From Spirochaetia bacterium (GTDB lineage Bacteria; Spirochaetota; Spirochaetia; SZUA-6; Bin103), in assembly GCA_965198005.1 (NCBI GenBank), contig CBDAOI010000003.1:1120001-1184000 (forward strand): 64,000 nucleotides of DNA, in the 5' to 3' direction. The position numbers and the translations under genes are program-made. How positions within the stretch are numbered: position 1 is the first letter of the stretch; every line of letters begins with the position of its first letter. Under the pieces are notes generated by a model, which was not told the origin of the DNA, searched no databases, and saw nothing but the letters and a program-made list of their open reading frames with translations. Positions 4,258 through 24,679 of the stretch are shown here, in pieces.

Positions 4258-4537
4258 GTGATCGCGCAACGTCTGCGCCGGGCGCGCGGGGTGGCGGCCG
4301 GGCGCGCTACCACCGCCGAGGTGATGCGGCTCACGCGTGGGGATGACTGAGGTGGTGCTGGTCGATACCAACGTCCTGCTTGACTTGTTTACCAATGATC
4401 CGCAGTGGCGCAATTGGTCCGAACGCGCCCTGGCCGGCGCATTCATGACCGATGGCGTGGGCATCAACCAGATCGTGTACGCGGAAGTCTCGTTGGCCTT
4501 CGACGACGCGGAGAGTGCGGTAGACATAGTCAGTTAA
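4258..4537 (+). pseudogene. Decayed VapBC relic: antitoxin C-terminus plus N-terminal half of a PIN toxin
   Basis: ...RATTAEVMRLTRGDD* overlapping MTEVVLVDTNVLLDL...GINQIVYAEVS, truncated at about 64 aa. Confidence 0.75.
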
Positions 4538-4555
4538 CTGATCTGCTATAAGACT

Positions 4556-4804
4556 ATGAATCAGATCAATATCGCTGAGGCGAAGGCTCGTCTGTCGTAT
4601 TACCTCGACAGAGTAGGCAAGGGTGAAACGGTGCTCATCTGTCGTCGGAACGTCCCGATAGCCGAGCTGCGGCCGATTCCGGCCCCACTGCGTCAGCCGC
4701 GTCCCGTGGGGATCGATCGGGGCATGACGATCCCGGACAGCTTCTTCGACCCGTTGCCTGACGACCTGCTTGACGCCTTCGAGGGAAGGGGTGAATCAGG
4801 GTGA
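4556..4804 (+). CDS. Phd/YefM-family antitoxin
   Basis: INIAEAKARLSYYLDRV..GETVLICRRNVPIAEL; C-terminal FFDPLPDDLLDAFEG. Confidence 0.9.
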   Translation: MNQINIAEAKARLSYYLDRVGKGETVLICRRNVPIAELRPIPAPLRQPRPVGIDRGMTIPDSFFDPLPDDLLDAFEGRGESG

Positions 4805-5298
4805 GACTCTTGCTCGATACCTGCACGTTTCTCTGGCTGGCGGCTGACGACGCCCGGCTGACGCCGCGTGCCCGGAGCACATGCCGCAGTCCCGACAACG
4901 ACGTGTTTCTCAGCGCGCTCTGTGCGTGGGAGATCGCGATCAAGCATCGGCTTGGGCGCTTGCCACTGCCCGCGTCGCCCGTGCGTTACGTGGTGAGTCG
5001 GCGCGAGGCGCTCCGGATCGAGCCGCTGAGTTTCGACGAATCCAGCGCCGTCCACGAAGGGCTGCTGCCGCCGCATCACCGTGATCCTATGGTAGTGCAA
5101 CTCGGCGACCTGGAGTTCACAACTACCCCAACCGTGCTACCCTGGGCGAAGGCACGCAGGCACACCGGCAGCCATGGCACTTCCGCGACAGATTCGTCCG
5201 CCCCGGGCTGCAGTCGCCACTCGATCCCCCCTCGTTGGCCTCGAACTGGTGCTCGGCGCCCACTTGGCATCATCGATTATAGACCTTCGCCAGTGTAG
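4801..5298 (+). pseudogene. VapC/PIN toxin, C-terminally truncated after HHRDP and fused to unrelated sequence
   Basis: MRLLLDTCTFLW...SALCAWEIAIK...HHRDP; the expected FDRxxxAQ...D segment is absent after ~5088. Confidence 0.75.
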
Positions 5299-5311
5299 CA
5301 CGCGCAACAGG

Positions 5312-5327
5312 GCTATACTTGTATAGC
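5312..5327. promoter_or_regulatory. Palindromic operator GCTATAC-TT-GTATAGC
   Basis: Perfect 7-bp inverted repeat just upstream of the RBS of an RHH antitoxin. Confidence 0.6.
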
Positions 5328-5341
5328 GAGGAGGCGGACCG

Positions 5342-5554
5342 ATGCTGGCGCTCAGGTTGCCTGAGGATGTGGAATCTCGACTTGAGGAACTGGCCAGGCG
5401 CACTGGCCGGACGAAGTCATACTATGCACGGGAAGCGATCGTTGAGCATTTGGCCGACCTGGAAGAGTTATATCTGGCCGAGGCGGAATTGGAAGCGATC
5501 AGGAAAGGAGCGAAGACTTACCCGCTAAGCGACGTGGAGCGGGACCTTGGCTGA
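5342..5554 (+). CDS. Ribbon-helix-helix antitoxin (RelB/CopG-like), orphan
   Basis: MLALRLPEDVESRLEELARRTGRTKSYYAREAIVEHLADLEELYLAE; GAGGAGG RBS; no toxin follows. Confidence 0.85.
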   Translation: MLALRLPEDVESRLEELARRTGRTKSYYAREAIVEHLADLEELYLAEAELEAIRKGAKTYPLSDVERDLG

Positions 5555-5556
5555 GG

Positions 5557-5771
5557 ACATGGCGGTGCGGGCCGGCGGGCAGGTGTACCTGTTCGAGTTC
5601 AAGGTGGTGGAGATGGAGCCGGAGGGGAGTGCGCTGGCGCAGCTTCAGAGCCGGGACTACGCGGCCAAGTACCGCCACCTGGGCGAGCCCATCCACCTGG
5701 TGGGGGTGGAGTTCAGCCGCGCCACGCGCAACGTGACCGCGTTCGCGGTGTTCGCGGTGGCGCCGGGCTGA
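5557..5771 (+). pseudogene. C-terminal fragment of a PD-(D/E)XK nuclease domain (AAA-ATPase-associated type)
   Basis: DMAV...VYLFEFKVVE...ALAQLQSRDYAAKY...IHLVGVEFS; no N-terminus. Confidence 0.75.
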
Positions 5772-5907
5772 CTAGCAGCCCGTGGCCTTATAGCACATCG
5801 TAGAATAGGCCTTGGTACAGGAACGCAGGTCGGATCGCTTCACAGTCGCGCTCGCTCACTCCGGCGCGCCGCATCTCGGAATGCCATCCTGCGCGCATCG
5901 GCCCGAT

Positions 5908-6544
5908 TCAGACGATCGGCCGCCTGCCGCTGATCGGTCTCAAGATCTTCACATTCGTGCTTAGGCACAGCCGGCTTCGTTCACGAAGCGCCGCATACCC
6001 GTCGGCCCAAATTTTTTTCAGTTCAGGATCGGAGGGTTCGGAGGAAACATCTCGCGTTTGCTCCCAATGGGCCATGTCATCGTACCGCGTCATCAGATAG
6101 ATGCGTCTTTCAGGCGCGATGATCGATATCCACTCTCCCAGCGGCATCTGCCTTAAGCCCTTTTCAGCCCAGTGCCACCAGCGCTCTTCAGACAGGTACA
6201 CCAGCCGGTCAACGTCGTTGTCACGGACCTCGAACGTCCTTACCGTGTAGATCCCCGGGTCATCTGACGTATCAGACCTCGTCGGATACCGCCGCGTTAG
6301 AAGCCGCAAAGCGATCACGTCCGTATCTTTGACCAGCGCGGCGCGTCCCGAGGAAGCGTCTGAAAGGCTTTCCCAGTTGCGTGTTTCCTGCCACTTGGCG
6401 AGGCTGTCGTAGCTGGTCATCGCCAAGATTGTTTCCGGACCGCCCATAACGACCGACCAGAGCCCAAGGGGTCTCCTCGCTAATGTTGACAAACTCGGCG
6501 TAATCCTTCCGCTCGACATGAAAGGTTTGCAGGGTAAAGATCAT
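5908..6544 (-). pseudogene. Tandem NIPSNAP-like (dimeric alpha/beta barrel) protein with internal deletion/frameshift
   Basis: AGGAG RBS plus MIFTLQTFHV...ISEE in one frame, continuing RPLGLW...YDSLAKWQETR in another; second repeat IYTVRTFEV...PLGEW...YDDMAHWEQTR. Confidence 0.6.
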
Positions 6545-6821
6545 GTTTGCGCTCCTCTTTCTTTTCAATTTCTGTCGCTCCCATTCAAGTGAGCGTGACC
6601 GGAAGTCGCGCTTGGCGCTACATCCCCCAGACCGTGACCGGCACGCCAGCTCCCGACGGCTCGCGGCTGATCGGGTAGACTCGGGTTGATCAACACTCGT
6701 CCGGTGGTACAACCTAAACGACCAGCGCGACCAGCGGGATCGGGGTCGTCTCGAGAGTTGGGCTGGGGTACTGCCTGCCGATTCACCATGGGTGGCCACG
6801 TTGGGACGCTGAGGTGCAACG

Positions 6822-8330
6822 ATGAAGGATAGTAAGAAGGATAGACCAAATCCATACTGCGACGCGCTCGGGGTCGGGATTCCGAAGCTTGAGGTGGCCA
6901 AGGACAACCGGGGGACCCATTATTACAGGCTACTGATCGTGGTACTCCTGGAGCGAGGCGAACCCGTCACCCTGCAGGAAGCCGCGCAGCGCTTCGAGGA
7001 GGCTGGGGTGGCGCCTGCCGCGCATGCCCTGGCTTCGCTGAAGCGGTGCAAGCCGGGGCGTGCACCGATCTACCGTGATGGCGACCGGTACGCGCTCGAT
7101 CCCTACGACGCCGAGGCCGATCTGTGGGTCTATCGCCTTGGCTTGCGCCCATGGAAGGCTGCGTCGCCCGTGGATCGCCCCGCGCCGGAACCACTTCCCA
7201 CCGTTGATGCTCCGTTGACGGCGGCGTATCTCGACGAGGCATGGCGAGACGGCGTCCCAAGCAGTTGGTCGGCTCAGCGCGTGGTTCTCTGCGTCCTGGA
7301 TGCGCACGGCAGGGCTATGGATCCGGAGGACGTGATCTCGTTCGTGTCGGCGCGCAGCCAGTGGTATCCCGTCCCAGCCAGGTCGGCCAACTATTGGCGG
7401 CGTGGATCTGCGATTCGAGCAAGAGAGGACGGCTGCTGGGAACTCGACCCCAACCACGATGCGCTTCGCTCTGCACGGCAAGCTGTCATCGACCGGATCG
7501 AGACTCGCAGGCGTTGGGCAAACGAGCCACCTGATCCGGCTGTGGTTGCCGCCAATCGAATACGCTTGGAACACGAGCGCGAGGCCCGCGCCAAGGAACT
7601 CGGCCGCATGCGGCGAGTGCTGATCCACCCGTTCCCCGCCAGGAAGCCTGAGGCGCTGGTGCTGGTCGACGTCGCCGAGCGGGATCTCCACACTTTCGTG
7701 CGAGACGAGATCGCAAGCGCCGTGGAGAAGCTCGCTGCCTATGACATCATTGCAGCCATCGACGTGCGCACGCTGCTGCGGACGTTAGGCTTCGAGCCCG
7801 GGGCCCGTCGCCTTGGTGAGTTGGGACCTCCGCAGAAGACAAGAACGATCAATAGGAGCGGGCGGACCCTCAAGATCACGGTGAGTTTGCTGGTACAGGG
7901 CTCGTGCGGCATCAGCCGCCCGTTCGGCGACGCCAAGAAAATGCGTGAGTACCTCGCCGGCGGCGAGCTGACGAAGCTGCGTCGCCGGCTCGAAGCCGAC
8001 GCCAAGTCGCTCTACGCCATCTATCAATATGGGCGCCTGCACGGCACCGTGCGGCTACGCTGGGGATTTCTGGACGAACTCCTCCCCGCTCCATGGGTGC
8101 AGCGCGACGAGGTAAAGCTCTACCACCTCAAGGATCAGTCTTACCAGCGCGGCGTGCCGCTCGAGATCGTGGTTGGCAGTGCACCCGGCTGGGCGGACCC
8201 ATGGTCACGGCGACAGTTGGCCCACGTCGAAAAGGAGCAGGACGGCTGGCGGTCGTGGCTGGTCGACGACTACGGCCACGTGATCCACGAGCATGAGATC
8301 CAGCTCGCTCGGCTGTCGGGCTCCGGGTAG
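6822..8330 (+). CDS. Hypothetical protein, 502 aa (putative wHTH x2 plus degenerate DEDD exonuclease-like domain)
   Basis: GAGG RBS, long ORF with protein-like composition; domain calls are by eye. Confidence 0.75.
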   Translation: MKDSKKDRPNPYCDALGVGIPKLEVAKDNRGTHYYRLLIVVLLERGEPVTLQEAAQRFEEAGVAPAAHALASLKRCKPGRAPIYRDGDRYALDPYDAEADLWVYRLGLRPWKAASPVDRPAPEPLPTVDAPLTAAYLDEAWRDGVPSSWSAQRVVLCVLDAHGRAMDPEDVISFVSARSQWYPVPARSANYWRRGSAIRAREDGCWELDPNHDALRSARQAVIDRIETRRRWANEPPDPAVVAANRIRLEHEREARAKELGRMRRVLIHPFPARKPEALVLVDVAERDLHTFVRDEIASAVEKLAAYDIIAAIDVRTLLRTLGFEPGARRLGELGPPQKTRTINRSGRTLKITVSLLVQGSCGISRPFGDAKKMREYLAGGELTKLRRRLEADAKSLYAIYQYGRLHGTVRLRWGFLDELLPAPWVQRDEVKLYHLKDQSYQRGVPLEIVVGSAPGWADPWSRRQLAHVEKEQDGWRSWLVDDYGHVIHEHEIQLARLSGSG

Positions 8331-8468
8331 TGCTGTGCTTGAGGATGGCTTCGCGCCATAGGTGCCGGGAATGCCCCGGGACCTGGGTCGGGCGATCAAA
8401 TGCCGGTCACCGGTCCACCGTAAGCGGCATTCAAGCGGCATGCAGCTACCCGCACAAGATACCTATCA

Positions 8469-8672
8469 GCCGATCGGGACGAAGGTGATTTCCAGGGCTT
8501 CCAGGGCATTGATGATGGCGCTGGCGACCAAGCCGAGCCCCAGCGCCGCCGCGGCGCCGAGCAGGTAGGTGGCCAGCGCCTCCACCAGCAACAGCAGCAG
8601 CAACTGCGCGCGGGTCGTGCCGATGGCGCGTAGCGATCCCAGCTCGCGCAGGCGTTCCAGGAAGGAGACCGA
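8469..8672 (-). repeat. About 200-bp diverged direct repeat of the ABC permease segment at 81-275 (gene fragment)
   Basis: Long identical stretch cccagcgccgccgcggcgccgagcaggtaggtggccagcgcctccaccagcaacagcagcagca shared with 142-205. Confidence 0.9.
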
Positions 8673-8696
8673 GATGATCGCAGGTCAGCAGCCAGA

Positions 8697-9614
8697 TCAG
8701 CAGGGGAGTGTTAGGTCTTCATCGTCTTCCTCGTTCGCCTCGTACCTGAATGACTTGAGTTCCACGCCCCATACGAAGCCGGCATCGGCGTGGTTGTAGC
8801 CGGCCTCGACCGCCAGCGAGACGCGCAGCCAGTCGATTCCCAGAGCGCCGCCGACGGTGAAGTCGCCCGCCGGGGCGGCTCCCCGCGTCTCGTCCCAGAA
8901 CAGGCCGCCGTCCGCAAACGTGCCCACGTAGATCCCGTCCAGGATCGGCACGCCGCCGGTTTGCAGAAAGTGGAGCCGGGCCTCCAGGTCGAGCACCAGC
9001 GCGGTCGTGCCGCCGGTATCGCTGCGTATCCCTTCCAGCAGCCCCAACAGGCGCCCGACGCTGAAGTCGCCGAACCGGTAACCGATCAGGTCGCGTGCCA
9101 GCTCCGGAGTCCGGCGGGTCAGGCCGCCGTGCAGCAGGCGCGGCTCGACGATGAAGGTGCGGTCGAGGAACCGCATCGGAGCGGCCAGTCCGACGCCGTA
9201 CGCGGCGGCCGCCCGGCGCAGGAGCTGGAGGGTGCTGAGGTCCGCTACCAGCGAGACGCGGCTGCGGTAGTCGGCCAGCAGCAGTAGCCCGCCCCGGTGG
9301 TCGCTCGCGTCCAGGTAGGGCAGGCGTCCCGGCGAGTGCTGCCGGTAGAGGCCGACCGCCTGCAGCGCGTCGTTGCCGTAGCCGGCGCCGAGATTGAAGC
9401 CGAGCGGGTCGAATCCCAGCACCGATCCGTAGCCCAGCACCCGGTGCGGCCCGAAGCCGACCCCCAGCCCCAGCAGGTATTCGCCACCCCATCGGGAGGC
9501 CTCCCCGACCAGCTCGGGCGCCGGGCCGGGCCGGTCGGACTGCGCGAACGCGGCGACCGCCGCCAGCAGGAGCACACAGCAAGGTGTCAACCCCCGGGCG
9601 CTGGAAGCGATCAA
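8697..9614 (-). CDS. Putative outer-membrane beta-barrel protein (Omp85/BamA-C-terminal-like); start uncertain
   Basis: Signal-like LLLAAVAAFAQ, alternating aromatic/Gly strands, GIYVGTFADGG...VGGALGID...EAGY. Confidence 0.55.
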   Translation of the reverse strand: MIASSARGLTPCCVLLLAAVAAFAQSDRPGPAPELVGEASRWGGEYLLGLGVGFGPHRVLGYGSVLGFDPLGFNLGAGYGNDALQAVGLYRQHSPGRLPYLDASDHRGGLLLLADYRSRVSLVADLSTLQLLRRAAAAYGVGLAAPMRFLDRTFIVEPRLLHGGLTRRTPELARDLIGYRFGDFSVGRLLGLLEGIRSDTGGTTALVLDLEARLHFLQTGGVPILDGIYVGTFADGGLFWDETRGAAPAGDFTVGGALGIDWLRVSLAVEAGYNHADAGFVWGVELKSFRYEANEEDDEDLTLPC

Positions 9615-9639
9615 CCAGGAAGGTCAGAATCGCCCGTTC

Positions 9640-10335
9640 CTACGCTACGGAACGCCTGCCACGAAGATCCTGCTCGAAGTGGATCGCGTCTCGGACCCGT
9701 TCGAGGGGCATATCGTAATCTCCAGCGAGCAGAACCATAGCATCCCCCCCCCGGTGGCGTTGATACAACATTTCCGTCGGTATACCCGTCCCGGCGAGAC
9801 ATGGCCTGCCGAACTGAACCGAAGGATTGATCTCGATTGTCCGTGGCTCCGCCGACTCTACTTCGGCTGTGGGGAACGGGAAGAGCTTACAGGCGTCCCC
9901 GCCGGGGTGTCTTTCGATTCTTTGCAGGGCAGCCCTGAGCACCTTGTCGAGAAGGATCTGCTTGTCGTGGTCGCTGACGTTGGTCAACAACCCGGACACG
10001 TGCGCAAACAGCTCGTACCCATCGGTAAGAATGTCTTGCTCCGCCAAGGGATGCTCTGAGTTCCACACGTCGGACAGGATTGCTATGGCTGTTCTGACGC
10101 GGTATAGTGTCACCCGGTGCCGCTTCCGTATCGAATTGAGGACGTGCAACTCAACCAGATTGCGAAACGACAACATCCGGTGCCGGGAGTCGTCCAACTG
10201 AAGCACAGGCTGGAACGTTCCCCATCCGGTCTTCGTGCCAACAAACCAAGCTCGAACGGTGGCTACCGGGGCCCTGACGTAGCGTGAGGCATCGGCGAAC
10301 GTGTATGCGCCGAGCGTCGATACGTCATAGCCCAC
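9640..10335 (-). CDS. DUF433-domain antitoxin (VapB45-like, N-terminal HTH)
   Basis: YTFADASRYV..P..TVRAW, LSFRNLVEL, HPLA, IEINPSVQFGRPCLAGTGIPT...DAIHFE; start approximate. Confidence 0.85.
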   Translation of the reverse strand: MGYDVSTLGAYTFADASRYVRAPVATVRAWFVGTKTGWGTFQPVLQLDDSRHRMLSFRNLVELHVLNSIRKRHRVTLYRVRTAIAILSDVWNSEHPLAEQDILTDGYELFAHVSGLLTNVSDHDKQILLDKVLRAALQRIERHPGGDACKLFPFPTAEVESAEPRTIEINPSVQFGRPCLAGTGIPTEMLYQRHRGGDAMVLLAGDYDMPLERVRDAIHFEQDLRGRRSVA

Positions 10336-10651
10336 AGGCGGAGCCCTTGGCCAAGGGGTGGGGGAACGCCGCGCCGCTGGTCGGGCATGGCGATCCTCCC
10401 GCTGGCACCTGTTCCGTGGCAGTGATGCTTCCACCCATCTTGCAGAACCGTACTGCTGGCAGCCCGGTGCGTCAATTACGTGGAGCGTCGTGATCGATGT
10501 CCGCGTCGACATCCGCGCTGTCCGCGCTGGACCCTGGGCTCGACGTGTGCGAAGGAGTGGCGCGCCCTGGCTCGCCGTGTGGCCGTTGTGGCCGCCCGCC
10601 CGCTTGACACCCCGGCTGCACGCCGGTCAGATGGAAAGGCGAGGCTTGGTC

Positions 10652-12750: not shown

Positions 12751-13089
12751 CTATCCCTGACCTGCGGCGAGCTCCAATACCTCTTCGGCCCACTGATTCA
12801 GGCTCTTGCCCGATATTTCTGCCGCCATGGCAGCCTTGCGGTGCGTTTCCGGGCTGACACGGAACATCACCCGGCCGGAGTAGGCCTTCTGGGGCTCCTT
12901 GCCGACCTTGGCGCAGGTCTCGAGGTAATCCTCGACTGCCTCGTGGAAGGCGAGTCTCAGGCCGTCCACCGATTCGGCGTGAAAGCCCACGCCATCCCGA
13001 ATCCCCGCGATCCGTCCCGTGAAGATTCGGTCGTCGTCGTCATATTCGATCCGGGCCGCGTAGCCCTTGTAGATCATGGTGTTTCTCAT
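12751..13089 (-). CDS. hicB: HicB-family antitoxin
   Basis: MIYKGYAARIEYD...VGFHAESVDGLRLAFHEAVEDYLETC...PQKAYSGRVMFRVSPETH...GKSLNQW. Confidence 0.93.
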   Translation of the reverse strand: MRNTMIYKGYAARIEYDDDDRIFTGRIAGIRDGVGFHAESVDGLRLAFHEAVEDYLETCAKVGKEPQKAYSGRVMFRVSPETHRKAAMAAEISGKSLNQWAEEVLELAAGQG

Positions 13090-13340
13090 GGGGTTACTCC
13101 GATCCGTTGCAGGAACGCACGGGCCGCGCGGACCTGGTAGCGTTTGGCCTCTTTTGTAGGATGCGGTCGGTGGAACGTCTCGATCTCGCCATCCTTCTCG
13201 AACCGCACCCGTGATCCTCGGCCCTCGATCAGCCGCGCACCGGCAGCGACAAGAAGGCTCTCGATCGCCGCCCACTCGATGGTGCCCGACAGCGGGTCCG
13301 TGAAGATGGCGGCAAGGGTCTTTCGTTGCTTGCTGTTCAA
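13086..13340 (-). CDS. hicA: HicA-family toxin
   Basis: KQRKTLAAIFTDP...IEWAAIESLL...EGRGSRVRF...FHRPHP.KEAKRYQV; ATGA overlap with hicB. Confidence 0.92.
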   Translation of the reverse strand: MNSKQRKTLAAIFTDPLSGTIEWAAIESLLVAAGARLIEGRGSRVRFEKDGEIETFHRPHPTKEAKRYQVRAARAFLQRIGVTP

Positions 13341-13355
13341 CAGGCATAGGTTACA

Positions 13356-17135: not shown

Positions 17136-17620
17136 CTAGTGCCACAACCGTCTCCGTGTCGCCAGCGGCGAGGGCGTTCATGTAGCCGAGGCTGAGGTTG
17201 CGTGTGCGGTAGTGGCCGAACTCGGCTTCATCCTGACGGCGGATGATGGGAAGGTGTCTAGAACGTAGGCGGCGTCCTCGCGGGACAGCCCGTAAAGGTG
17301 GAAGTAAAGGGCGTCGAGACGGGCGCGGAGGTGGCGGCGCTGCTCGGCGTTCCAGATGAACGGCTGCCCGTCGTATCCGAGATCGCGGGCGAAGGATGCC
17401 ATGTCGTAGGCGCTGTAGGTGAGGCGCAGGACGTGATCGCGGATCAGATCCCGGGCGTTCCGGTCGCCGAAGCGCCGGTCGTAGTTCCCTGGTGAGATGA
17501 CGGGAAGCTGCTCGACGATGAAAAGATTGAGGGTCTGGCCGTGAACCTTCTGCCGGGCGATGAAGTCGAAAGCGAAAGTGTTTAGATTGGCGACCAACAG
17601 CGGTGCGGAAGTGTTGCCCG
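17136..17620 (-). pseudogene. Second copy of the RM enzyme distal TRD/C-terminal segment (complete tail, one frameshift)
   Basis: ANLNTFAFDFIARQKVHGQTLNLFIVEQLPV...HLRARLDALYFHLYGL..YVLDTFP | IIRRQDEAEFGHYRTR...NALAAGDTE; shift at ~17250. Confidence 0.88.
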
Positions 17621-17930
17621 CCAGGTGAGATTTCCGGGATGTAGACGAACCCGCCAGGTGCCGTAGGATAGGTTCGCCCGGGCGCCCGGGAAGGGCTCTG
17701 GAGATCACGAAAAAGAGATAGGGGCCACCGCCAGTACTTACTCCGGGTACAACGGTGACCCCCACCTAAAAGCTGGATCATCCTAAACTAGACGGCTTCG
17801 ACTTTCAAGCCTACCGCCAATCCCTGATCAGAGAAGGCGGCAAGCGTCCCTGCGTGCTGTGCGGGGAGAGCCATGCGGTGGTGATTCATTGCTACTGCAA
17901 ACGCCTGGTGCGGTGCACCGACGGCAGTAA

Positions 17931-20900
17931 TCACCAACACCTGATCGTGGTGCGGCCACCGCCCGTGCTGGTGCGGATGAACTCGCCGCCGAGCCGCGTC
18001 CGGGCGTCGTGGCCGAGGGCGCGGGCGAACGGCGCCATATCGTGGGCTGTGTAGGTCAGGCGCAGGACGTGATGGCGGACCATCTCGCGGGCGGTCGTGT
18101 CGCCGAAACGCCGATCGTAGTCGTTGGGTGCGATTACGGGCAGTTGCTCGACTATGTACCAGTTCAGATTTGTGCCCTGAACTTTCTGTCTCGCCACGAA
18201 GTCTACCGGGATGGCGCTCAGATTCGCCCCGAGACAGGCGGCGGCGAGACCGTCACCTCCCACGAGAAGAGGGACCTTGTTGCCATAACCCGCCCACGGG
18301 ACGACCGCCGTTACGACCGTTCGTACGTCGGTCGGCCTGGCGATATCGCGGAAGCCCAAGGCCCATCCTCGCGCGCGAGGAATCCTTGACTCCACGTCCT
18401 TCGCTGGAACCCAGTACTGCGTCCGCGGAAGGAAGCCGGGATCTGCATGCTGGGCGTCGCTCACGGCTTCACTCACATACGGATTGTGCGTGTTCTGTGG
18501 GTTGATACGTACCGAGTTGGCGCGGTGATCGAAATGCGAAATCATCCGACCCTGGTATAGGGGCAGATACCACTCATCCGCTTTCTTATAGCGGTTGCCC
18601 TCGACCAGGTAGAAGCCCGCGGTTTCGAGCTCGGCAGCGGTGCGGAACAAGGCGGAGTCGTTGGTCATGTCGAACATTCGGTAGTAGCGCACCGGCCAGA
18701 CGCGCCGTTCCTCGGAGCCCGAGCGATCGACGAGCACCGGGTGTCGTTCGTAGATGCGACGCGTGATGTCGGCGTCGCGGCGGGTGCGGAACACGGGGGC
18801 GGTGCCGGTGTTGGGGTTCACCCGGGCGAAGTCGTCCGGCGTCAGCGGGAAGCAACGCTGCGGGTCGTCGACGGTGCCGGTGTCGTGCAGGAAGAAGGCG
18901 CACTTGGTCTGCGCGAAGCGGCGCTCGTCGCCGCCGAAGATGAGCGCGCAGAACTTGAACCGCGAATCGACGTCCGGGAAGAATGGTGGCAGCTCGGTGC
19001 CAAGACGGCGGTTCTCGAAGTCGAACAGGCCGCCGATTCTGCCGGTGGTGGAGAGGCTCTTGAAGAAGCGGGCGGCGGTCTTGTCGGCGTAGATGCCGGA
19101 TGGCGTGAGCAGGCCTACCAGTCCGTCGGGCGTCACCAAGCTCATGGCGCGTTCGACGAACAGCGAGTAGAGGTTGATGTCGCCGCCGCCGAGCAGCGGG
19201 TAGCTGCCGGACATGCGCACCATGCGGCCGAGTTGGTCGGCACGCCCCTTGGCGGCGTCGAAGTCCGCCGCCAGCGGCTCACTCCGGTCCCGCAGTCGCC
19301 GGATCGCGGCGCGCCGGGCGGCCGCGGTCGGGGCAAGGGCGATCTCCCGAGCACGGGTCGCGAACCACTCCACCTCCTGCAGCTTGATCCGGTCCCAGGG
19401 CGGATTGCCGATCACGGCGTCGAAGCCGCCTTCGGGCCGGCGGTTCTGCCAGTGCCGCCATACGCCGGGAAAGGCCGCCTGCCAATGCAGGAATGCCTCC
19501 CGCCGCGCAATGGCTCTGGCTTCCTGCCAGCGCTCGCGCAGCGTTGCCCAGTGTTCCTGGTCGACGTCGTCGGCGCCGTCACCCCCGGAATCCGGCCCAC
19601 GCGCCAGAATCCGGTACGCATCGGTGGGTTTTCGGCTGAGCGTTGCCGCCAGCGGCGTCTCGAATTGGGAGCGCGCCGTGGTTTTCATGCCGGCGCTCAT
19701 CCACTGCAGTCCGCAGAGAAAATCGAGCAACCCACGCAGGTCGGCCGTGGTCTCCTCTACACCGCGAAACGCCGACGCCGACTCGTGCACCTCCACCACG
19801 TCGGCATCCGACATCTCCTCGATCCGCGCCATCCCCTCCGCGGCGACCTCCGCGCCGGCCATCGCCGAACCGGCAAACAACCCGCCGAGCCGATCCAGCT
19901 CGCGAATCGCGTCCCGCACCCGGATCCCGATCAGCGAGTCGCCGCACCGCAGGTGATGGTCGAGGAACGACAGCGGCGCACCTGCGGTGAAGCTGTGCAA
20001 CCACAGCGAGACCTTCGCCAGTTCCACGGTCAGGCGGTTCTTGTCCACCCCGTAGATGCAGCGCTTGAGCACCATGCGCCGGATGATGGCCTGGTCCGTG
20101 AGCTGGGCGACGTCGATGATCCAGTTGCCTGCCTGCGCCCGGTGCAGAATCCCCCGCCGAATCTCGGCGATCCGGCCTACCAGGGGCGATTCATAGGCGC
20201 CGTCGGACCACTCCGGCACGCCCGGCACGTATTCGATCAACTCGGCGATGTAGTCGGACAGGAAGTCGACAGCGCTTACCAGAAAGTGGCCGCTGCCCAT
20301 GGCCGGATCGAGCACCTTGAGCCGCAGCACCGCTTCCGCCGGATCCAGCCGTGCCAGCGTCGCCATCCGAACGGCCTTGGGGCGGCGATCGGTCGCAAGC
20401 TCGTGCGCCCTGGCCTCGAACGCACGCAACCGCTCCTCCGCCAGCGGTTTGAGTGTCTGGTCCACGATCAGGTCGACCAGTTCCTGCGGCGTGTAGAAAC
20501 TGCCGCTGTCCTTGCGGGCGTAGGAGTCGAGCCGGATCTCCACGCCGCCGTCTGCCGTGCGCGTGGGTTCGCGTTCGAGGAGGCGTTCGTAGATGGAACC
20601 GAGTTGCTGCACCGACATGTCGCGGTAGTTGACGAAACGGCGGGCACCATTGTCCTGCTGGCCCGCCGCCGTGTGGCTGAGGTCGTAAATGACGTCCGCC
20701 ACCACCGTGTCCGGGACCCGGACTTGCTGCAGGATCGGCGCGGCCTCGGGCGCGAACAGGCCGCCGTTGTAGGGCGGCAGGCCGATCGACTCATCGCCCT
20801 GGTCGATCTGTCGGAACAGCTCGGTCAGGCGGTTGTAGTAGTGACCGGCGGTGGAGGAAAAGGTGTCGCCCTCGGCCATGCGGCGCGCAACATCCTCGCG

Positions 20901-21815
20901 CACGCGCTTCCGCAAGCCGTAGTCATCGTAGCGCGCGTCGTTGACCGGCAGCAGACCTCGGTCCTCGGCGTAGAGCACGAACAGCAGCCGGTAGAGGAAG
21001 ATCAGCGCCGCTGAGCGGACATCCGACAGGCTGTCGGAACCGGCGGCATCGGCGATCGCCGCTACCAGTCGCGGGAACACGCGTTCGAACACCACGCTGG
21101 ACAGGTCCTGTGCCACCGATTCCTCGTAGCGGCGTCCTTCCGCGATGGCGGCCTCGAGGAAGGTGGTCGTGGCCGTGCCCTGCAACGTAAAGGAGGCGCG
21201 ACCGAACAACAGGTGGAAGATCCGCAGGCCATCCTCGTTGCCGAGCTGGAGCACTTCCGCGAGGTCGGTCTCGAAGAAACCGCCCGCGCGCGGCCGGGCG
21301 CGCCGGTCATACAGGCGCCACACGCTGCCGTTGGTCAGGATCCCGAACCGGATGCGTCCTTCCGAAGCGACGTCGGCGGTCGTCAGATAGCGCAGCATCT
21401 GCCCGTGCGGGGTGCCGCCCCGGGGCCCGTCGGTGCGGTCGCGCTGATCAAGCGCAAGCCCGAAGCGCTTGCTCTCCTGCACGACCAGGGCGTCCTGAAA
21501 GCGGTCGTCGGAATTGCCGCGAGCAGTCGCGCGCGCCTTGGCTGCCGCGTCGGCGAACAGTAGATGGTCGGGAACGTCCTCATGGCCGGCTGCTGCCTGC
21601 TGCGGCAGGTAGGTCCAGCCCAACAGCTCCAGCACCGGGCGAATGAGGTCCTGCTCGGTCACCGCCTCGTTGGGCTGGTGCAGCGAGCTGAACCGTTCGT
21701 ACGCCTGCCCGAGGTCGCGGCGGAAGTCGGCAAGCTTCGTTACCGCCGCCTCCCATTCAGGAGTCGTGCGGATGCCGTCGGTAAGAAAGTACTGAGTAAA
21801 CAACTGGCCCTTCAT
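17931..21815 (-). CDS. Type IIG/Eco57I-like fused restriction endonuclease-N6-adenine methyltransferase (C-terminus truncated)
   Basis: N-terminal PD...ESK nuclease motif, YNGGLF, GSFYTP, motif I VLDPAMGSGHFL, IYGVD, motif IV IGNPPW, TRD region. Confidence 0.93.
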   Translation of the reverse strand: MKGQLFTQYFLTDGIRTTPEWEAAVTKLADFRRDLGQAYERFSSLHQPNEAVTEQDLIRPVLELLGWTYLPQQAAAGHEDVPDHLLFADAAAKARATARGNSDDRFQDALVVQESKRFGLALDQRDRTDGPRGGTPHGQMLRYLTTADVASEGRIRFGILTNGSVWRLYDRRARPRAGGFFETDLAEVLQLGNEDGLRIFHLLFGRASFTLQGTATTTFLEAAIAEGRRYEESVAQDLSSVVFERVFPRLVAAIADAAGSDSLSDVRSAALIFLYRLLFVLYAEDRGLLPVNDARYDDYGLRKRVREDVARRMAEGDTFSSTAGHYYNRLTELFRQIDQGDESIGLPPYNGGLFAPEAAPILQQVRVPDTVVADVIYDLSHTAAGQQDNGARRFVNYRDMSVQQLGSIYERLLEREPTRTADGGVEIRLDSYARKDSGSFYTPQELVDLIVDQTLKPLAEERLRAFEARAHELATDRRPKAVRMATLARLDPAEAVLRLKVLDPAMGSGHFLVSAVDFLSDYIAELIEYVPGVPEWSDGAYESPLVGRIAEIRRGILHRAQAGNWIIDVAQLTDQAIIRRMVLKRCIYGVDKNRLTVELAKVSLWLHSFTAGAPLSFLDHHLRCGDSLIGIRVRDAIRELDRLGGLFAGSAMAGAEVAAEGMARIEEMSDADVVEVHESASAFRGVEETTADLRGLLDFLCGLQWMSAGMKTTARSQFETPLAATLSRKPTDAYRILARGPDSGGDGADDVDQEHWATLRERWQEARAIARREAFLHWQAAFPGVWRHWQNRRPEGGFDAVIGNPPWDRIKLQEVEWFATRAREIALAPTAAARRAAIRRLRDRSEPLAADFDAAKGRADQLGRMVRMSGSYPLLGGGDINLYSLFVERAMSLVTPDGLVGLLTPSGIYADKTAARFFKSLSTTGRIGGLFDFENRRLGTELPPFFPDVDSRFKFCALIFGGDERRFAQTKCAFFLHDTGTVDDPQRCFPLTPDDFARVNPNTGTAPVFRTRRDADITRRIYERHPVLVDRSGSEERRVWPVRYYRMFDMTNDSALFRTAAELETAGFYLVEGNRYKKADEWYLPLYQGRMISHFDHRANSVRINPQNTHNPYVSEAVSDAQHADPGFLPRTQYWVPAKDVESRIPRARGWALGFRDIARPTDVRTVVTAVVPWAGYGNKVPLLVGGDGLAAACLGANLSAIPVDFVARQKVQGTNLNWYIVEQLPVIAPNDYDRRFGDTTAREMVRHHVLRLTYTAHDMAPFARALGHDARTRLGGEFIRTSTGGGRTTIRCW

Positions 21816-22010
21816 GATCGGGTGTAAGACCGGAGCCCGGCTCGACTCTGGCCATCATAGCAGACAGATGCAGATGTCGTCGTACTGCATCGTCGAGTGA
21901 CTCGAACAGGGTGTCACGGTAGGATGCCCCCGGGGTCCGTGGCTACCGAGGGTGTAGACCTCGCGTGTTCCGGATTACGATAGTCCCCACGGCATAGATT
22001 GATGTTGGCA

Positions 22011-22262
22011 TTACCCACTACGTGCAGTATGGACGCTGGCTGGGAATGGCATGGTATCGTTCTCATCGATTATACACTCAATGCCTGACACATAGCAGAT
22101 TAGGGAGCGTTTGGTGCGTTCCTGAATCTGATTGATTAGCGTTTGCCGTTGGTAGCGACTTGCGTGATTTGCCTCGAATAACGGCGTCTTGCTGGCTGGT
22201 CGCGAACCATCCTTGGCCGACGAAGGATCGCCGCTACTCTCTTGTGTCGACTCGTCGGTCAT
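22011..22262 (-). pseudogene. N-terminal fragment of a probable SDH/ClpP-class serine protease
   Basis: GAGGAG RBS; KTPLFEA..ASRYQRQTLINQIQERTKRSLICYV...I...DT.PF then breaks before any catalytic motif. Confidence 0.55.
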
Positions 22263-22266
22263 GGGG

Positions 22267-22617
22267 TTACTCCTCGTTCGTACAAATTGCCCATCGGATC
22301 CTACCATCGCGGATGGTGAAGTGGCAGCGGCGTTGAGCAGTGATGTCGTCGATGCTAGGACGGATCGACAGCGGTTTTCGAGACTCGATCCTCCAGAATG
22401 GGTATCGGGTGATGTCCAGATTCACCATGAGTCGATGCCGCGTTCGGCAGGGGCAGTCGAAAACAGCCCAGGTCGCGCGATCTCGTGTCACGACAAGAAC
22501 TACGCCTCGGTAGGGTAGGCGCTCAGCTACGTCGTCACCCGCCTCGACGTGTCCGACAACCCGCCAGGAGCGCCAGGGGAGCGGTAGCGATTGCCACCAA
22601 GGAAACAACCCTTTCAT
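22267..22617 (-). CDS. DUF6527-like small Cys/His (putative Zn-binding) protein
   Basis: WAVFDCPC...MVNL...PFW...SIRPSI...CHFTIRDGRIRW; ATGA overlap with E1 stop. Confidence 0.8.
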   Translation of the reverse strand: MKGLFPWWQSLPLPWRSWRVVGHVEAGDDVAERLPYRGVVLVVTRDRATWAVFDCPCRTRHRLMVNLDITRYPFWRIESRKPLSIRPSIDDITAQRRCHFTIRDGRIRWAICTNEE

Positions 22618-23995
22618 CCCTGCCATGTCTGCTCCAGGAACGGTTCGGTGACGCCAAGTCCGAGTTTCTGAGCCTGTGGATGGCAATAGTGACGTTCGCG
22701 AGGTTCCTGGTCGTTCGTGGACACCTCACGCTCATGCGAGCGGAGCAGTATTTCCGTGGGGGCAGGGTCAGGCCCATAGTGAATGAGTCGCTCGAGCAGT
22801 TCGCTTACGGCCGCTGAGGCAACCTGCGTCGTAAACGCCACGACCGCGGGCTCGGGGTCTGCCAGCGCGGGCGCGTAGCCTTCTTCGGCGAGTCGACGGT
22901 ACTCAGATGGGTTGAGCATTTCAGCGGCTGCACGCTGTAAGTCAACGCGGTTGCGACAGACCAGGCACCCAGCGCCCGGGGCGAGGACTGTCACGCGGCC
23001 GTCGATTCCAACAAGTTGCCCTCCGGAGCCACTGCTCAGCAGCACACCGCAATCGATGACGGGAGTCAACAGGTACGACGCGATGCGCGACAGCACGAGC
23101 CGACCAGCGTTGTCATCGGTGCAGCCGAACACGACATCAGCGTCAAGCAGCAGTCTGGCCGTGGATTCGATCGTAATCTTGGTCTGTGCGGTCGTCACTT
23201 CGGCATCGGGCGCGATTCGGCTCACGTGGGCGGCACTCAGGCTTACTTTCGGCTGGCCGACGCAATGGAGGTAGGATCCGTATACGCGCGTGACGTTCCC
23301 GGCAGTCAACGTATCGGGATCAAACAACTGCAGATGACGTACGCCGAGACGGACGAGTTGCTCGATAACTGCCGACCCGGTGCCACCGCAGCCGACGACA
23401 GCGATGCGAAGATTGCCGAGAACCTGTTGTATTTTGCCGCCGAAGGCTCTGATGTTCCGGTCGAATTGCTCAGAAGGTGGCGTTGTGCCGTGGAGCCAAT
23501 TCTGCATGAGCGCGAAACGCCGGCCGGTCACCCACAGGCGATCGATCTCGGTTCGCCGGTTTTCGGATTCGACGTGGCCCGTGAAACACAGTTGGCCCCG
23601 GGGCCGCGCCATGACATCGCTCCGTACAGGGGACTCGCTGCGCGGAGTCGGAAGAGGTCAGAAAGCTGTCGGTCGACGAGTTCGTCGTGCTTGCTCGGCT
23701 TGGGCGATGAGTCGATGCCGGGATGGGTATGCAACCAGATCGGGACGGACCGGTCGGCCTCCGCAGCAGCGAGGGCGGGGACGTAGCCATTGGAGGCAAC
23801 GCTGAGCCCGGTTGCATCGCGCCGACGGTAGGCGTCATCCGGCACCCAATGCAACGCACGGGCGAGCAAGCGGACATTGTCGCCGGGAGTGTCCACTTGC
23901 CGCGCCAGCAGAACGCAGGCGGACTCCGTTTCAGCCGCTGCCGCGTCAAAGAGCTCGGCTGCGAGTTGGTCCGGCAGTACCAGCGTGACGGCCAT
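22614..23995 (-). pseudogene. JAB/MPN metallopeptidase - ThiF/E1 adenylyltransferase fusion, split by a 1-nt frameshift at ~23616
   Basis: JAB: ESACV...WLHTHPG..SPKPSKHD; E1: FDRNIRAFG, VVGCGGTGS, FDPD..NVTR, GCTDD...R, CLVC...HYC. Confidence 0.85.
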
Positions 23996-24384
23996 CAAGC
24001 CACCTTCGGCACGCTGTGTTCCAGGTCCTGCCGGATCAGGGAGAGGAAGCTCGCAAGGCCATCGACTCCGGATTGCCACTGTCCGTTGTTGAAGTGTCTC
24101 GACCAGCGTTGCCACTGGCGACCCAGGTACACCTCGACGACGCTGGTGGCAGGCAGAGCCACGCCGTTGGCCAAGTGCACTGCCGGATAGAACCACCACA
24201 TGTCGGGGGGGACATCGGGATAGCCGGGACTGAGCCGAACCAGGAGATCCGATGCATTGCGATCCAGCCCTTTCGGGAGCGGCCACTGCGGTATCACGAC
24301 ACATATCATGCCGGACTCGGTCGCGACCTCATGAACGACACCTCGTTCGTTCAGGTACGTGATGTCCGCTTGGGGAAGAGTCAT
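23995..24384 (-). CDS. Prokaryotic E2/UBC-like protein (family E)
   Basis: WPLPKGL...LLVRLSPGYPDVPPDMWWFYP...WQRWSRH...W.SGVDGL; TGATG coupling to JAB-E1. Confidence 0.88.
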   Translation of the reverse strand: MTLPQADITYLNERGVVHEVATESGMICVVIPQWPLPKGLDRNASDLLVRLSPGYPDVPPDMWWFYPAVHLANGVALPATSVVEVYLGRQWQRWSRHFNNGQWQSGVDGLASFLSLIRQDLEHSVPKVA

Positions 24385-24466
24385 GGCGATTGCTACGCCC
24401 TCACGCGGAAAGCGTGGTTGGTGCCAGGGTTGATCGTCCACATTCTCCGATAGCACAATGTGCAGC

Positions 24467-24679
24467 ATGAGACCCGTCAAAGCGATGACGATTCGCCTGT
24501 CTGCCGACCAGTCAGAGCAGTTGAGCACGATCGCGGCCGTCGACGGTCAGCCAGTATCGCATGTGATCCGCTCGGCAATCGCCGAGCACATCAAGGGGCG
24601 CAGACGTGACGCCGAGTTTCAGGACATGCTCCGTCAGCGCATCGAGCGCGAGCAACGGATGCTGCCAAATGACGAATAG
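24467..24679 (+). CDS. Ribbon-helix-helix (CopG-like) protein, probable orphan antitoxin
   Basis: AMTIRLSADQSEQL..IAAVDGQPVSHVIRSAIAEHI; palindrome GCACA-A-TGTGC just upstream. Confidence 0.75.
   Translation: MRPVKAMTIRLSADQSEQLSTIAAVDGQPVSHVIRSAIAEHIKGRRRDAEFQDMLRQRIEREQRMLPNDE

Follow-up and report, generated by a model that had tools for sequence, protein, structure and literature searches.

Probable decay of a Type I Bub operon in a Spirochaetia genome, and an SDH-type protease as the regular fifth gene of its relatives

The stretch of DNA examined here, 64,000 nucleotides from a Spirochaetia bacterium (positions 1,120,001 to 1,184,000 of contig CBDAOI010000003.1, assembly GCA_965198005.1), will be called the window. 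It contains, on its minus strand, a prokaryotic E2 (BubB), a JAB-E1 protein (BubCD), a DUF6527 protein (BubE) and the start of a protease, and this locus is a Type I Bub (6E.1) operon, that is, an operon for the conjugation of a ubiquitin-like protein (Ubl), BubA. The window copy is very probably a decayed, non-functional remnant of a six-gene cassette, RHH-bubA-bubB-bubCD-bubE-protease. In the relatives of this operon, an SDH-type protease was consistently found as the regular fifth gene.

Bub operons, formerly known as '6E' or 'DUF6527' operons, are the subject of two 2024 preprints from one laboratory (PMC11601596 and PMC11601603, both cited here from the accessible part of their text). According to the first of them, the intermediates of Bub conjugation are oxyesters, formed on a tyrosine of the E1 and on a serine of the E2, and BubA conjugates are stripped by BubE, a Ser-His peptidase containing a zinc site. 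Row 6e of a 2006 survey (PMC1779556, also cited from a part of its text) holds the same gene set. A first reading of the window, made from its letters alone and referred to below as the sequence-only reading, had stated that no characterised system shows this combination of genes, which does not hold, as the set E2, JAB-E1 and DUF6527 is that of Type I Bub (PMC11601596) and of row 6e (PMC1779556). Its proposal that the DUF6527 protein might be an adaptor or E3-like factor has to give way to the peptidase activity reported for BubE (PMC11601596). The core of the operon is therefore already known and biochemically characterised; the protease as fifth gene, its deaminase alternative and the RHH regulator, described below, were not found in print.

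Results

Gene content of the window locus

Between 24384 and 22011, four co-oriented genes can be read on the minus strand, at the place given by the sequence-only reading. The junctions between them were also as it had described. The stop codon of bubB and the start codon of bubCD overlap in TGATG (23993-23997), the stop codon of the E1 part overlaps an ATG of bubE in ATGA (22614-22617), and the TAA stop codon of bubE (22267-22269) is followed by four bases, CCCC, and by the ATG of the protease gene (22260-22262). The HxH-x9-S-x2-D, GxGxxG, CxxC and CPC...CHF motifs can all be read in the translations. The features of the locus are listed below; L numbers designate related loci, of which L002 is intact.

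24458-24679, plus strand: divergent RHH/DUF6290 (RelB-like) gene; Pfam DUF6290 4.8e-05, RHH_1 0.0011
24438-24452: deletion junction; homology to L001, L002, L003 and L018 up to 24437, resuming at 24445-24453
24393-24437, minus strand: 3' remnant of bubA, last 14 codons and stop, TINPG followed by a tail; aligns to the bubA ends of L001, L003 and L018
23995-24384, minus strand: bubB, E2-like, intact open reading frame (ORF) with the Ser-x-His motif QRWSRH; Pfam Prok-E2_E 5.9e-36
23615-23995, minus strand: JAB/JAMM peptidase part of bubCD up to the frameshift, HTH-x9-S-x2-D; by tblastn, residues 1-127 match the N-terminal part of intact BubCD
23615-23616: 1-nt deletion parting the JAB and E1 frames; one more base in 6 of 6 aligned homologues
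22614-23614, minus strand: E1 (ThiF-type adenylation) part of bubCD, intact; Pfam ThiF 1.3e-36; GCGGTG, adenylation Arg, crossover-loop Tyr
22267-22626, minus strand: bubE, DUF6527, zinc-binding Ser-His peptidase, intact ORF; Pfam DUF6527 (PF20137) 1.9e-16, 60.2 bits against a cut-off of 23.6
22044-22262, minus strand: what is left of an SDH-type ClpP-fold protease gene, roughly the first 73 of some 310 codons; by tblastn, 55% to residues 1-87 of the L002 SDH protein

The BubB protein of the window is 81% identical to that of L002 over 130 amino acids (aa). The best solved relative of L002 BubB is the Citrobacter BubB (9eae_C, 4.4e-09), in which the QRWSRH motif is identical, and WQRWSRH is kept in all 42 listed BubB relatives. 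As is typical of the Type I Bub E2, BubB has no catalytic cysteine and carries the conserved serine (and histidine).

The E1 part of bubCD has its own ATG at 23612. When it was compared with solved structures, the closest relative was Citrobacter BubCD (9ea4_A, 1e-24), a result in line with the Ubl-conjugation operon of the E1/E2/JAB kind that had been proposed. In this alignment NVTR is paired with NLNR and EEGY with ERGY, and the adenylation arginine and crossover-loop tyrosine of a Type I Bub E1 are both present. The corresponding residues 229 and 372 of 9ea4_A would be R227 and Y370 of PMC11601596, with an offset of two residues. Residues 24-408 of L002 BubCD, covering JAB and E1, aligned to residues 30-406 of Citrobacter BubCD (4e-25), whereas ThiF and MoeB reached about 1e-12. 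Against the ThiF/MoeB models of NCBIfam the best score of the E1 part was 84.1 bits (TIGR02356, cut-off 275), the others lying far under their cut-offs too; the E1 is not a cofactor-biosynthesis ThiF/MoeB enzyme, and the refuting case named by the sequence-only reading is thereby decided in favour of conjugation. The same domain matched the 'E1-E2' models of PADLOC, through its adenylation domain only; BubA, BubB, BubE and the SDH protease are not covered by PADLOC models.

The JAB stretch, when submitted alone to Pfam, scored under the cut-off (Prok-JAB, E 0.0051, 17.1 bits against 25), and its assignment as a JAB domain is based on homology to intact BubCD proteins. It lies directly before the E1 part, which is the domain order of BubCD. 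The JAB/E1 fusion of the sequence-only reading is right in that both parts are present and adjacent, and wrong in that they do not form one ORF: the frames run over 23528-23995 and 22614-23612, respectively. In 41 of the 43 related loci described below, bubCD matches in a single frame.

The bubE gene starts either at 22626, with a 13-nt overlap that is the commonest one in relatives (median BubCD-BubE spacing, -13), or at 22617. Its product is the sole DUF6527 match in the genome. The FDCPC, PS(I/V)D and CH(F/Y) motifs recur across the listed BubE relatives; with the Pfam match, the CPC, PSID and CH motifs of the window protein probably represent the zinc-cysteine cluster and the Ser/His pair of the Type I Bub DUF6527 protein, the latter being S92 and H102 in Citrobacter BubE.

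Three lesions in the window copy

The window operon carries three lesions: the deletion of bubA and of the promoter region, the 1-nt frameshift in bubCD and the truncation of the protease gene at about codon 73. Damage at both ends had been suspected from the letters, and this was confirmed by comparison with relatives, the DNA homology spanning 22044 or 22082 to 24437 and resuming on the RHH side. At the upstream junction, between 24437 and 24445-24453, about 320-550 nt of the relatives' DNA are missing, namely the RHH-bubA intergenic region and nearly all of bubA (L002 has 547 nt and L003 has 318 nt in the equivalent interval). The region upstream of the RHH gene is largely gone in this deletion. 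The RHH protein itself, 80% identical to that of L002, is likely the regulator of the operon and would repress the divergent promoter. In the RHH-bubA intergenic region of relatives (L001, about 4660-4700; L003; L018), a conserved inverted repeat, GCCACC...GGTGGC, stands beside a TTGTCA box. These are candidates for the RHH operator and the promoter, and they fall in the DNA that is missing from the window.

Of bubA only the last 14 codons remain, so that the Ubl of a Type I Bub operon, found in 40 of the 43 relatives, is lacking in the window. All 27 aligned relatives share INPG at the C-terminus of BubA, where it is followed by a tail of 0-20 residues, L017 having the only listed BubA devoid of a tail. 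Neither the L002 BubA protein nor the Multi_ubiq Pfam model gave a match in the genome of the window (4.89 Mb, 4 contigs, 90.4% complete); the model search gave nothing in 14 control genomes either, and carries little weight alone. As no Ubl gene was found in the genome, the surviving bubB, E1 and bubE ORFs have nothing to conjugate.

At the downstream end, the DNA ceases to align with that of L003, L005 and L029 at 22044, and the protein alignment ends after DTMPF. The ORF of the protease remnant (98 aa) continues into unrelated sequence, up to a stop codon at 22011-22013. It ends before the LHTxGG and AKSAGT motifs, and all catalytic regions are absent. No Pfam or NCBIfam match was obtained for the 98-aa ORF, even at permissive thresholds. 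The SDH/ClpP-like nature claimed for it was upheld by its match to the N-termini of proteins of about 300 aa in relatives (36 of 43 loci), and found no support in the profiles; neither a score above the PF01972 or NF047768 cut-off nor the catalytic serine region of the SDH family is found in the fragment. The rest of the gene was found neither in the window nor in the genome, which has no other SDH match.

The lesions are supported by public sequencing runs. At least 83% of the sampled words of the stretch are present in seven runs, which belong to three studies. Contigs of four of these runs (X1, X2, X5 and X6, from three studies) bridge both junctions with 0-1 differences. As these junction contigs come from three studies, it was concluded that assembly artefacts do not account for the lesions. 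The window itself may stem from one of these runs, and the independent samples amount to three studies at most. The 1-nt deletion recurs in X1, X2 and X5, whose contigs cover the place without a gap. In the X6 contig, one additional base behind 23615 makes the frame continuous again. The bubCD frameshift is real and polymorphic in nature. It is presumably younger than the other two lesions, because these are present in all four runs.

A six-gene cassette in relatives

To find relatives, genomes were scanned with the window E1 as query, one genome per species being retained. This gave 43 loci, 55-85% identical, from Acidobacteriota, Chloroflexota, Actinomycetota, several classes of Pseudomonadota and others. 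Their gene content was then determined by tblastn with the six proteins of L002, as follows.

BubCD: 43 of 43 loci
BubB: 42 of 43 loci
BubE: 42 of 43 loci
BubA: 40 of 43 loci
SDH-type protease: 36 of 43 loci, in most directly after bubE
Divergent RHH gene, upstream: 35 of 43 loci

As for the misses, L015 and L027 run into contig ends, a frameshift is present in L043, bubCD is interrupted by a 2.5-kb insertion in L021, and L018 is devoid of bubE. The RHH and SDH genes are present together or absent together in most of the 43 loci. In L002, all six genes are clean ORFs with the expected Pfam domains:

4400-4639, minus strand: RHH
4666-5241: BubA, two Multi_ubiq domains, 5.1e-27
5225-5620: BubB
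5617-6999: BubCD, one 460-aa frame
6987-7346: BubE
7351-8283: protease, 310 aa

The linkage of the protease to bubE is tight. With start codons picked by rule, the bubE-protease gap ranged from -10 to +30 nt in 24 of 35 genome loci, and 14 loci showed a 4-nt overlap. In addition, the reciprocal test was carried out. An alignment of 31 protease sequences and the window fragment was scanned on metagenome contigs, and the best 80 loci, 37-68% identical, were analyzed. BubE was directly upstream in 63 of the 70 loci that have at least 450 nt upstream, and both BubCD and BubE were found in 42 of the 45 with at least 2000 nt. Where at least 3000 nt were available (39 loci), BubA was present in 36, BubB in 36 and RHH in 35. 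The exceptions are mostly the most distant protease matches. The conserved gene order that had been looked for, the SDH-type protease included, is hence found in relatives from genomes and from metagenomes alike.

In the clade of the window, BubA and BubB are mostly encoded by separate ORFs in different frames, an in-frame fusion being seen in L018 only (4880-5617). This locus is also the only one of the 43 without bubE, its protease gene (7065-7988) lying directly after bubCD. Other loci show rearrangements. About 2.5 kb are inserted within bubCD in L021 (3466-6001), where the protease gene is interrupted; 1.4-1.7 kb separate bubE from the protease gene in L008 and L009 (between 7300 and 9200), the bubE gene of L008 containing stops; and bubCD is in three frames in L043. 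Two copies of the cassette, L007 and L029, both about 80% identical to the window E1, occur on two contigs of one Dehalococcoidia metagenome-assembled genome.

The Bub-linked protease is a distant member of the SDH/ClpP fold

The intact protease of L002 matched PF01972, 'ClpP-like SDH-type serine proteinase' (4.4e-17, 62.5 bits against a cut-off of 31.3). Its score on the NCBIfam SDH equivalog NF047768 was 69.6 against a cut-off of 250, and for this reason the Bub-linked protease is regarded as a distant subfamily of the SDH/ClpP fold. Conserved motifs of the aligned protease relatives are LHTxGG, AKSAGT and ELGPIDPQ. A confident AlphaFold model of the L002 protein (pLDDT 88.3, pTM 0.85) was compared with the PDB by Foldseek, and the best matches were ClpP2, the 1510-N stomatin-specific protease and SppA (E about 1e-4); the model predicts an extra C-terminal helical region and a disordered N-terminus. 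On PHROGs, the protease matched an unnamed family (phrog_11747, 1.2e-48) and, weakly, a head maturation protease.

A complex of protease residues 26-311 with BubA was predicted with a score of 0.00; run without controls, this prediction has no weight for or against binding. A conserved N-terminal 'KTP' motif was considered as the site of a conjugation lysine and was dropped, the lysine being replaced by arginine or asparagine in several relatives.

A deaminase in the fifth position

Of the seven loci without the protease, four (L022, L026, L031 and L040) have an ORF of 523-545 aa that starts at the bubE stop codon. The L022 protein (locus 7316-9790), the one of the four on which the family scan was done, matched the dCTPase model of PADLOC (6e-136) and the anti-phage dCTP deaminase of NCBIfam (NF041025, 402 bits against a cut-off of 400). 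It is followed in L022 by a helix-turn-helix gene and an M78 (IrrE-like) peptidase gene, a CapH/CapP-like pair. The four deaminase loci are devoid of the RHH gene.

A maximum-likelihood tree was built on the E1 part of 41 sequences, L021, L027 and L043 being omitted. The four deaminase sequences were found in one small group, which also holds one SDH-linked sequence and is nested among SDH-linked ones. The fifth-gene label requires two changes on this tree, of which the starred branches force only one. As the tree mixes phyla throughout, it was concluded that the cassette moves horizontally with its fifth gene attached. The occurrence of either protease or deaminase suggests that the slot is an exchangeable effector position.

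Surroundings of the operon

Three features beside the operon were also characterized.

17931-21815, minus strand: type IIG restriction-modification (RM) gene (Eco57I/MmeI-like), 1294 aa, directly downstream and not part of the Bub operon; Pfam Eco57I 4.5e-19, N6_Mtase
17178-17765, minus strand: C-terminal remnant of a second, paralogous type IIG gene, 195-aa ORF, sharing 62% identity over 82 aa with the RM protein (residues 1191-1272)
22018-22048: 31-nt repeat at the protease breakpoint; 40 matches in its own genome including itself, 87-100% identical, on both strands

On PADLOC the RM gene matched DrmMI (2.2e-90) and REase_MTase_IIG (4.5e-65). The 195-aa ORF lies 165 nt downstream of it and has a longer C-terminus than the RM protein, whose similarity to the paralogue stops 22 residues before its own stop. 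This suggests that an earlier RM gene was displaced by another one, and the native C-terminus of the 1294-aa gene may itself be missing.

The 31-nt repeat occurs at no fewer than 39 other places of the genome, in similar, coding-looking contexts, and it explains the 10-20-fold spike in depth in the bin 21994-22090. The seven copies that were read are inside a longer conserved stretch, whose translation looks like the N-terminal part of peptide-ABC-transporter permeases, as judged by resemblance. A mobile-element end at the 22044 breakpoint, to which the spike in depth had pointed, was considered and rejected, the repeat matching the inside of a multi-copy, coding-looking family. The 31-nt stretch may be filler DNA captured when the junction was formed.

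No tRNA gene was found in the first 30000 positions of the window. Genes with DUF433 and HicB domains, which are families of toxin-antitoxin type (9640-10512 and 12751-13347), and an ABC-2 permease gene lie to the left of the RM genes. The label of defence island given to these surroundings is fair but loose.

Discussion

By homology to the Citrobacter system, to which all of the following steps are owed, an intact copy of the cassette would work as follows. The JAB domain would trim the tail of BubA and expose the glycine of INPG; the E1 would adenylate BubA and carry it as an ester on its tyrosine; BubB would take it over on its serine, again as an ester, and pass it to lysines of target proteins; and BubE would remove it from these targets. 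The families and their order are indeed those of the Type I Bub operon of Citrobacter sp. RHBSTW-00271 (BubAB-BubCD-BubE; PDB 9ea4, 9ea5, 9eae and 9eav), as given in the accessible text of PMC11601596. The two have in common a Multi_ubiq Ubl, a Prok-E2_E protein that has Ser-x-His and no catalytic cysteine, a JAB-E1 protein with the crossover-loop tyrosine, and DUF6527. They differ in three respects. BubA and BubB are fused in the published definition of Type I, whereas they are mostly separate in the clade of the window; the clade has a divergent RHH gene where the operons described in the accessible sources have CapW, CapH and CapP, or CapK and CapS; and it has the fifth gene after bubE, the window copy being moreover without bubA and frameshifted.

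Class 6e of Iyer, Burroughs and Aravind (2006) likewise combines a polyUbl, an inactive-looking E2/RWD-like protein, a JAB-E1 protein, a small metal-binding protein and mobility across phyla; unlike in our clade, no associated ClpP or other peptidase is found for it in the accessible part of PMC1779556. In Type II CBASS, a pair formed by E1/E2 (Cap2) and JAB (Cap3) regulates the enzyme of a neighbouring effector pathway, and this may serve as a working analogy for the control of the fifth gene. In contrast to CBASS, the operon has no CD-NTase and no Cap2-type E1-E2 fusion, it has a separate Ubl, and Bub chemistry proceeds by oxyesters instead of thioesters (PMC11601596, in its accessible text). 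The protease shares the ClpP/crotonase fold with the SDH family (PF01972, NF047768), ClpP, SppA and 1510-N/NfeD, from which it differs by its tight linkage to Bub. In the published literature searched, no link of an SDH/ClpP-type protease to Bub was found, and neither such a protease nor an effector is mentioned in the text of PMC11601596 and PMC11601603; supplementary operon tables may list such neighbours. The anti-phage dCTP deaminase (NF041025) occupies the fifth slot of four sister loci and is not found in the window, so that its only bearing is on whether the slot is an effector position.

We tentatively propose that the fifth enzyme would be the output of the operon, under the control of Bub conjugation. 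The wider picture, in which a widespread mobile Type I Bub clade would be hard-wired to an exchangeable fifth enzyme, protease or deaminase, with Bub acting as a Ubl control module as Cap2/Cap3 do on CBASS, is on present evidence a rather doubtful one.

Several observations weigh against reading the window copy as a dead remnant, and the fifth gene as an effector. Catalytic residues are preserved in the bubB, E1 and bubE ORFs, all three of which are intact, the bubCD allele of X6 is unbroken, and a Ubl gene may lie on the missing part of a genome that is 90% complete. The loss of the promoter is deduced from the absence of the intergenic DNA. According to the accessible text of PMC13373217, protection against phage has yet to be demonstrated for Bub operons. 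The effector role of the protease is plausible, the arguments for it being gene order, translational coupling and the deaminase swap only. Furthermore, the protease gene is absent from 7 of 43 loci and lies apart from bubE in four others: it follows at a distance of 1.4-4.3 kb in L008, L009 and L021, and it precedes the operon in L016. A sample of 400 further genomes from the phylum yielded only two other DUF6527 loci, with no SDH match within 1.5 kb, a number too small to estimate the frequency of the protease variant.

Among the other explanations, the one that survives best, though we consider it unlikely, is that the protease (and the deaminase) would not be controlled by Bub and would be an independent single-gene defence or housekeeping enzyme travelling with the cassette. 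The anti-phage dCTP deaminase family, which we take to act alone, has its own defence models in PADLOC and NCBIfam; genes for defence occur in clusters and may be co-transcribed; and this explanation would also accommodate the loci where the protease gene is displaced and the 7 of 70 SDH-selected metagenome loci that lack BubE. It accounts less well for a linkage of about 90% in both directions across many phyla, for the stop-start overlaps with bubE, for the co-presence or co-absence of RHH and SDH in most loci and for the fact that the protease stays attached while the E1 tree departs from the host phyla.

The protease could also be a third BubA-specific peptidase, or a degrader of BubA-tagged proteins, and not an effector acting on untagged ones. 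A Ubl system beside a protease of self-compartmentalising type recalls the ubiquitin-proteasome and Pup-proteasome systems. The ClpP fold of the protease is in keeping with this, and all listed BubA proteins except that of L017 carry a tail after INPG that needs trimming. We regard such a role as quite improbable: these tasks are already covered by two peptidases of the operon, JAB acting on the precursor and BubE on the conjugates (PMC11601596, in its accessible text), and a processing role does not explain the deaminase in the same slot.

As regards the window copy, it is very unlikely that the trimmed operon still works, with BubB, a separate JAB and E1 (or the unbroken allele) and BubE acting on a Ubl encoded elsewhere, or in a new role. 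The intact ORFs, with their Ser-x-His, Arg/Tyr and DUF6527 motifs, the start codon of the E1 part, the X6 allele and the incompleteness of the genome would allow for it. The entire RHH-bubA intergenic region is gone, however, no BubA or Multi_ubiq match was found in the genome, with the limit set on the model search by its control genomes, and three independent lesions in one operon of 2.5 kb fit drift and not selection. It is extremely improbable that the operon is intact in the organism and that errors of assembly or sequencing produced the lesions. Long reads often miss a single base, and X6 does have the extra one, yet both junctions (22044; 24437-24453) are bridged by four runs of three studies, of which one run may be the source of the window, and the deletion, seen in three of the four runs, lies at about 23615 outside any long homopolymer.

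The preferred reading thus remains that of a decayed remnant. Decay would have begun with the loss of the promoter region and bubA and with the truncation of the protease gene beside the incoming type IIG RM gene, the frameshift arising later in a part of the population. The preserved catalytic residues of the surviving ORFs, together with a natural allele in which bubCD is uninterrupted, show that the decay is recent, and residual activity is possible.

The window copy thereby documents the stepwise decay of a Bub cassette in a natural population, in which the bubCD frameshift is still polymorphic. The enzymology of Bub is known, and the protease- or deaminase-coupled subfamily described here points to a possible controlled target. 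Cultured carriers of the variant exist in Bradyrhizobium sp. LMG 9283 (L037) and Frondihabitans sp. PhB188 (L041). If the proposed control of the fifth enzyme is true, it would give this phenotype-less pathway a testable output, and the protease form would couple Ubl tagging to proteolysis, as a bacterial counterpart of tag-and-degrade systems.

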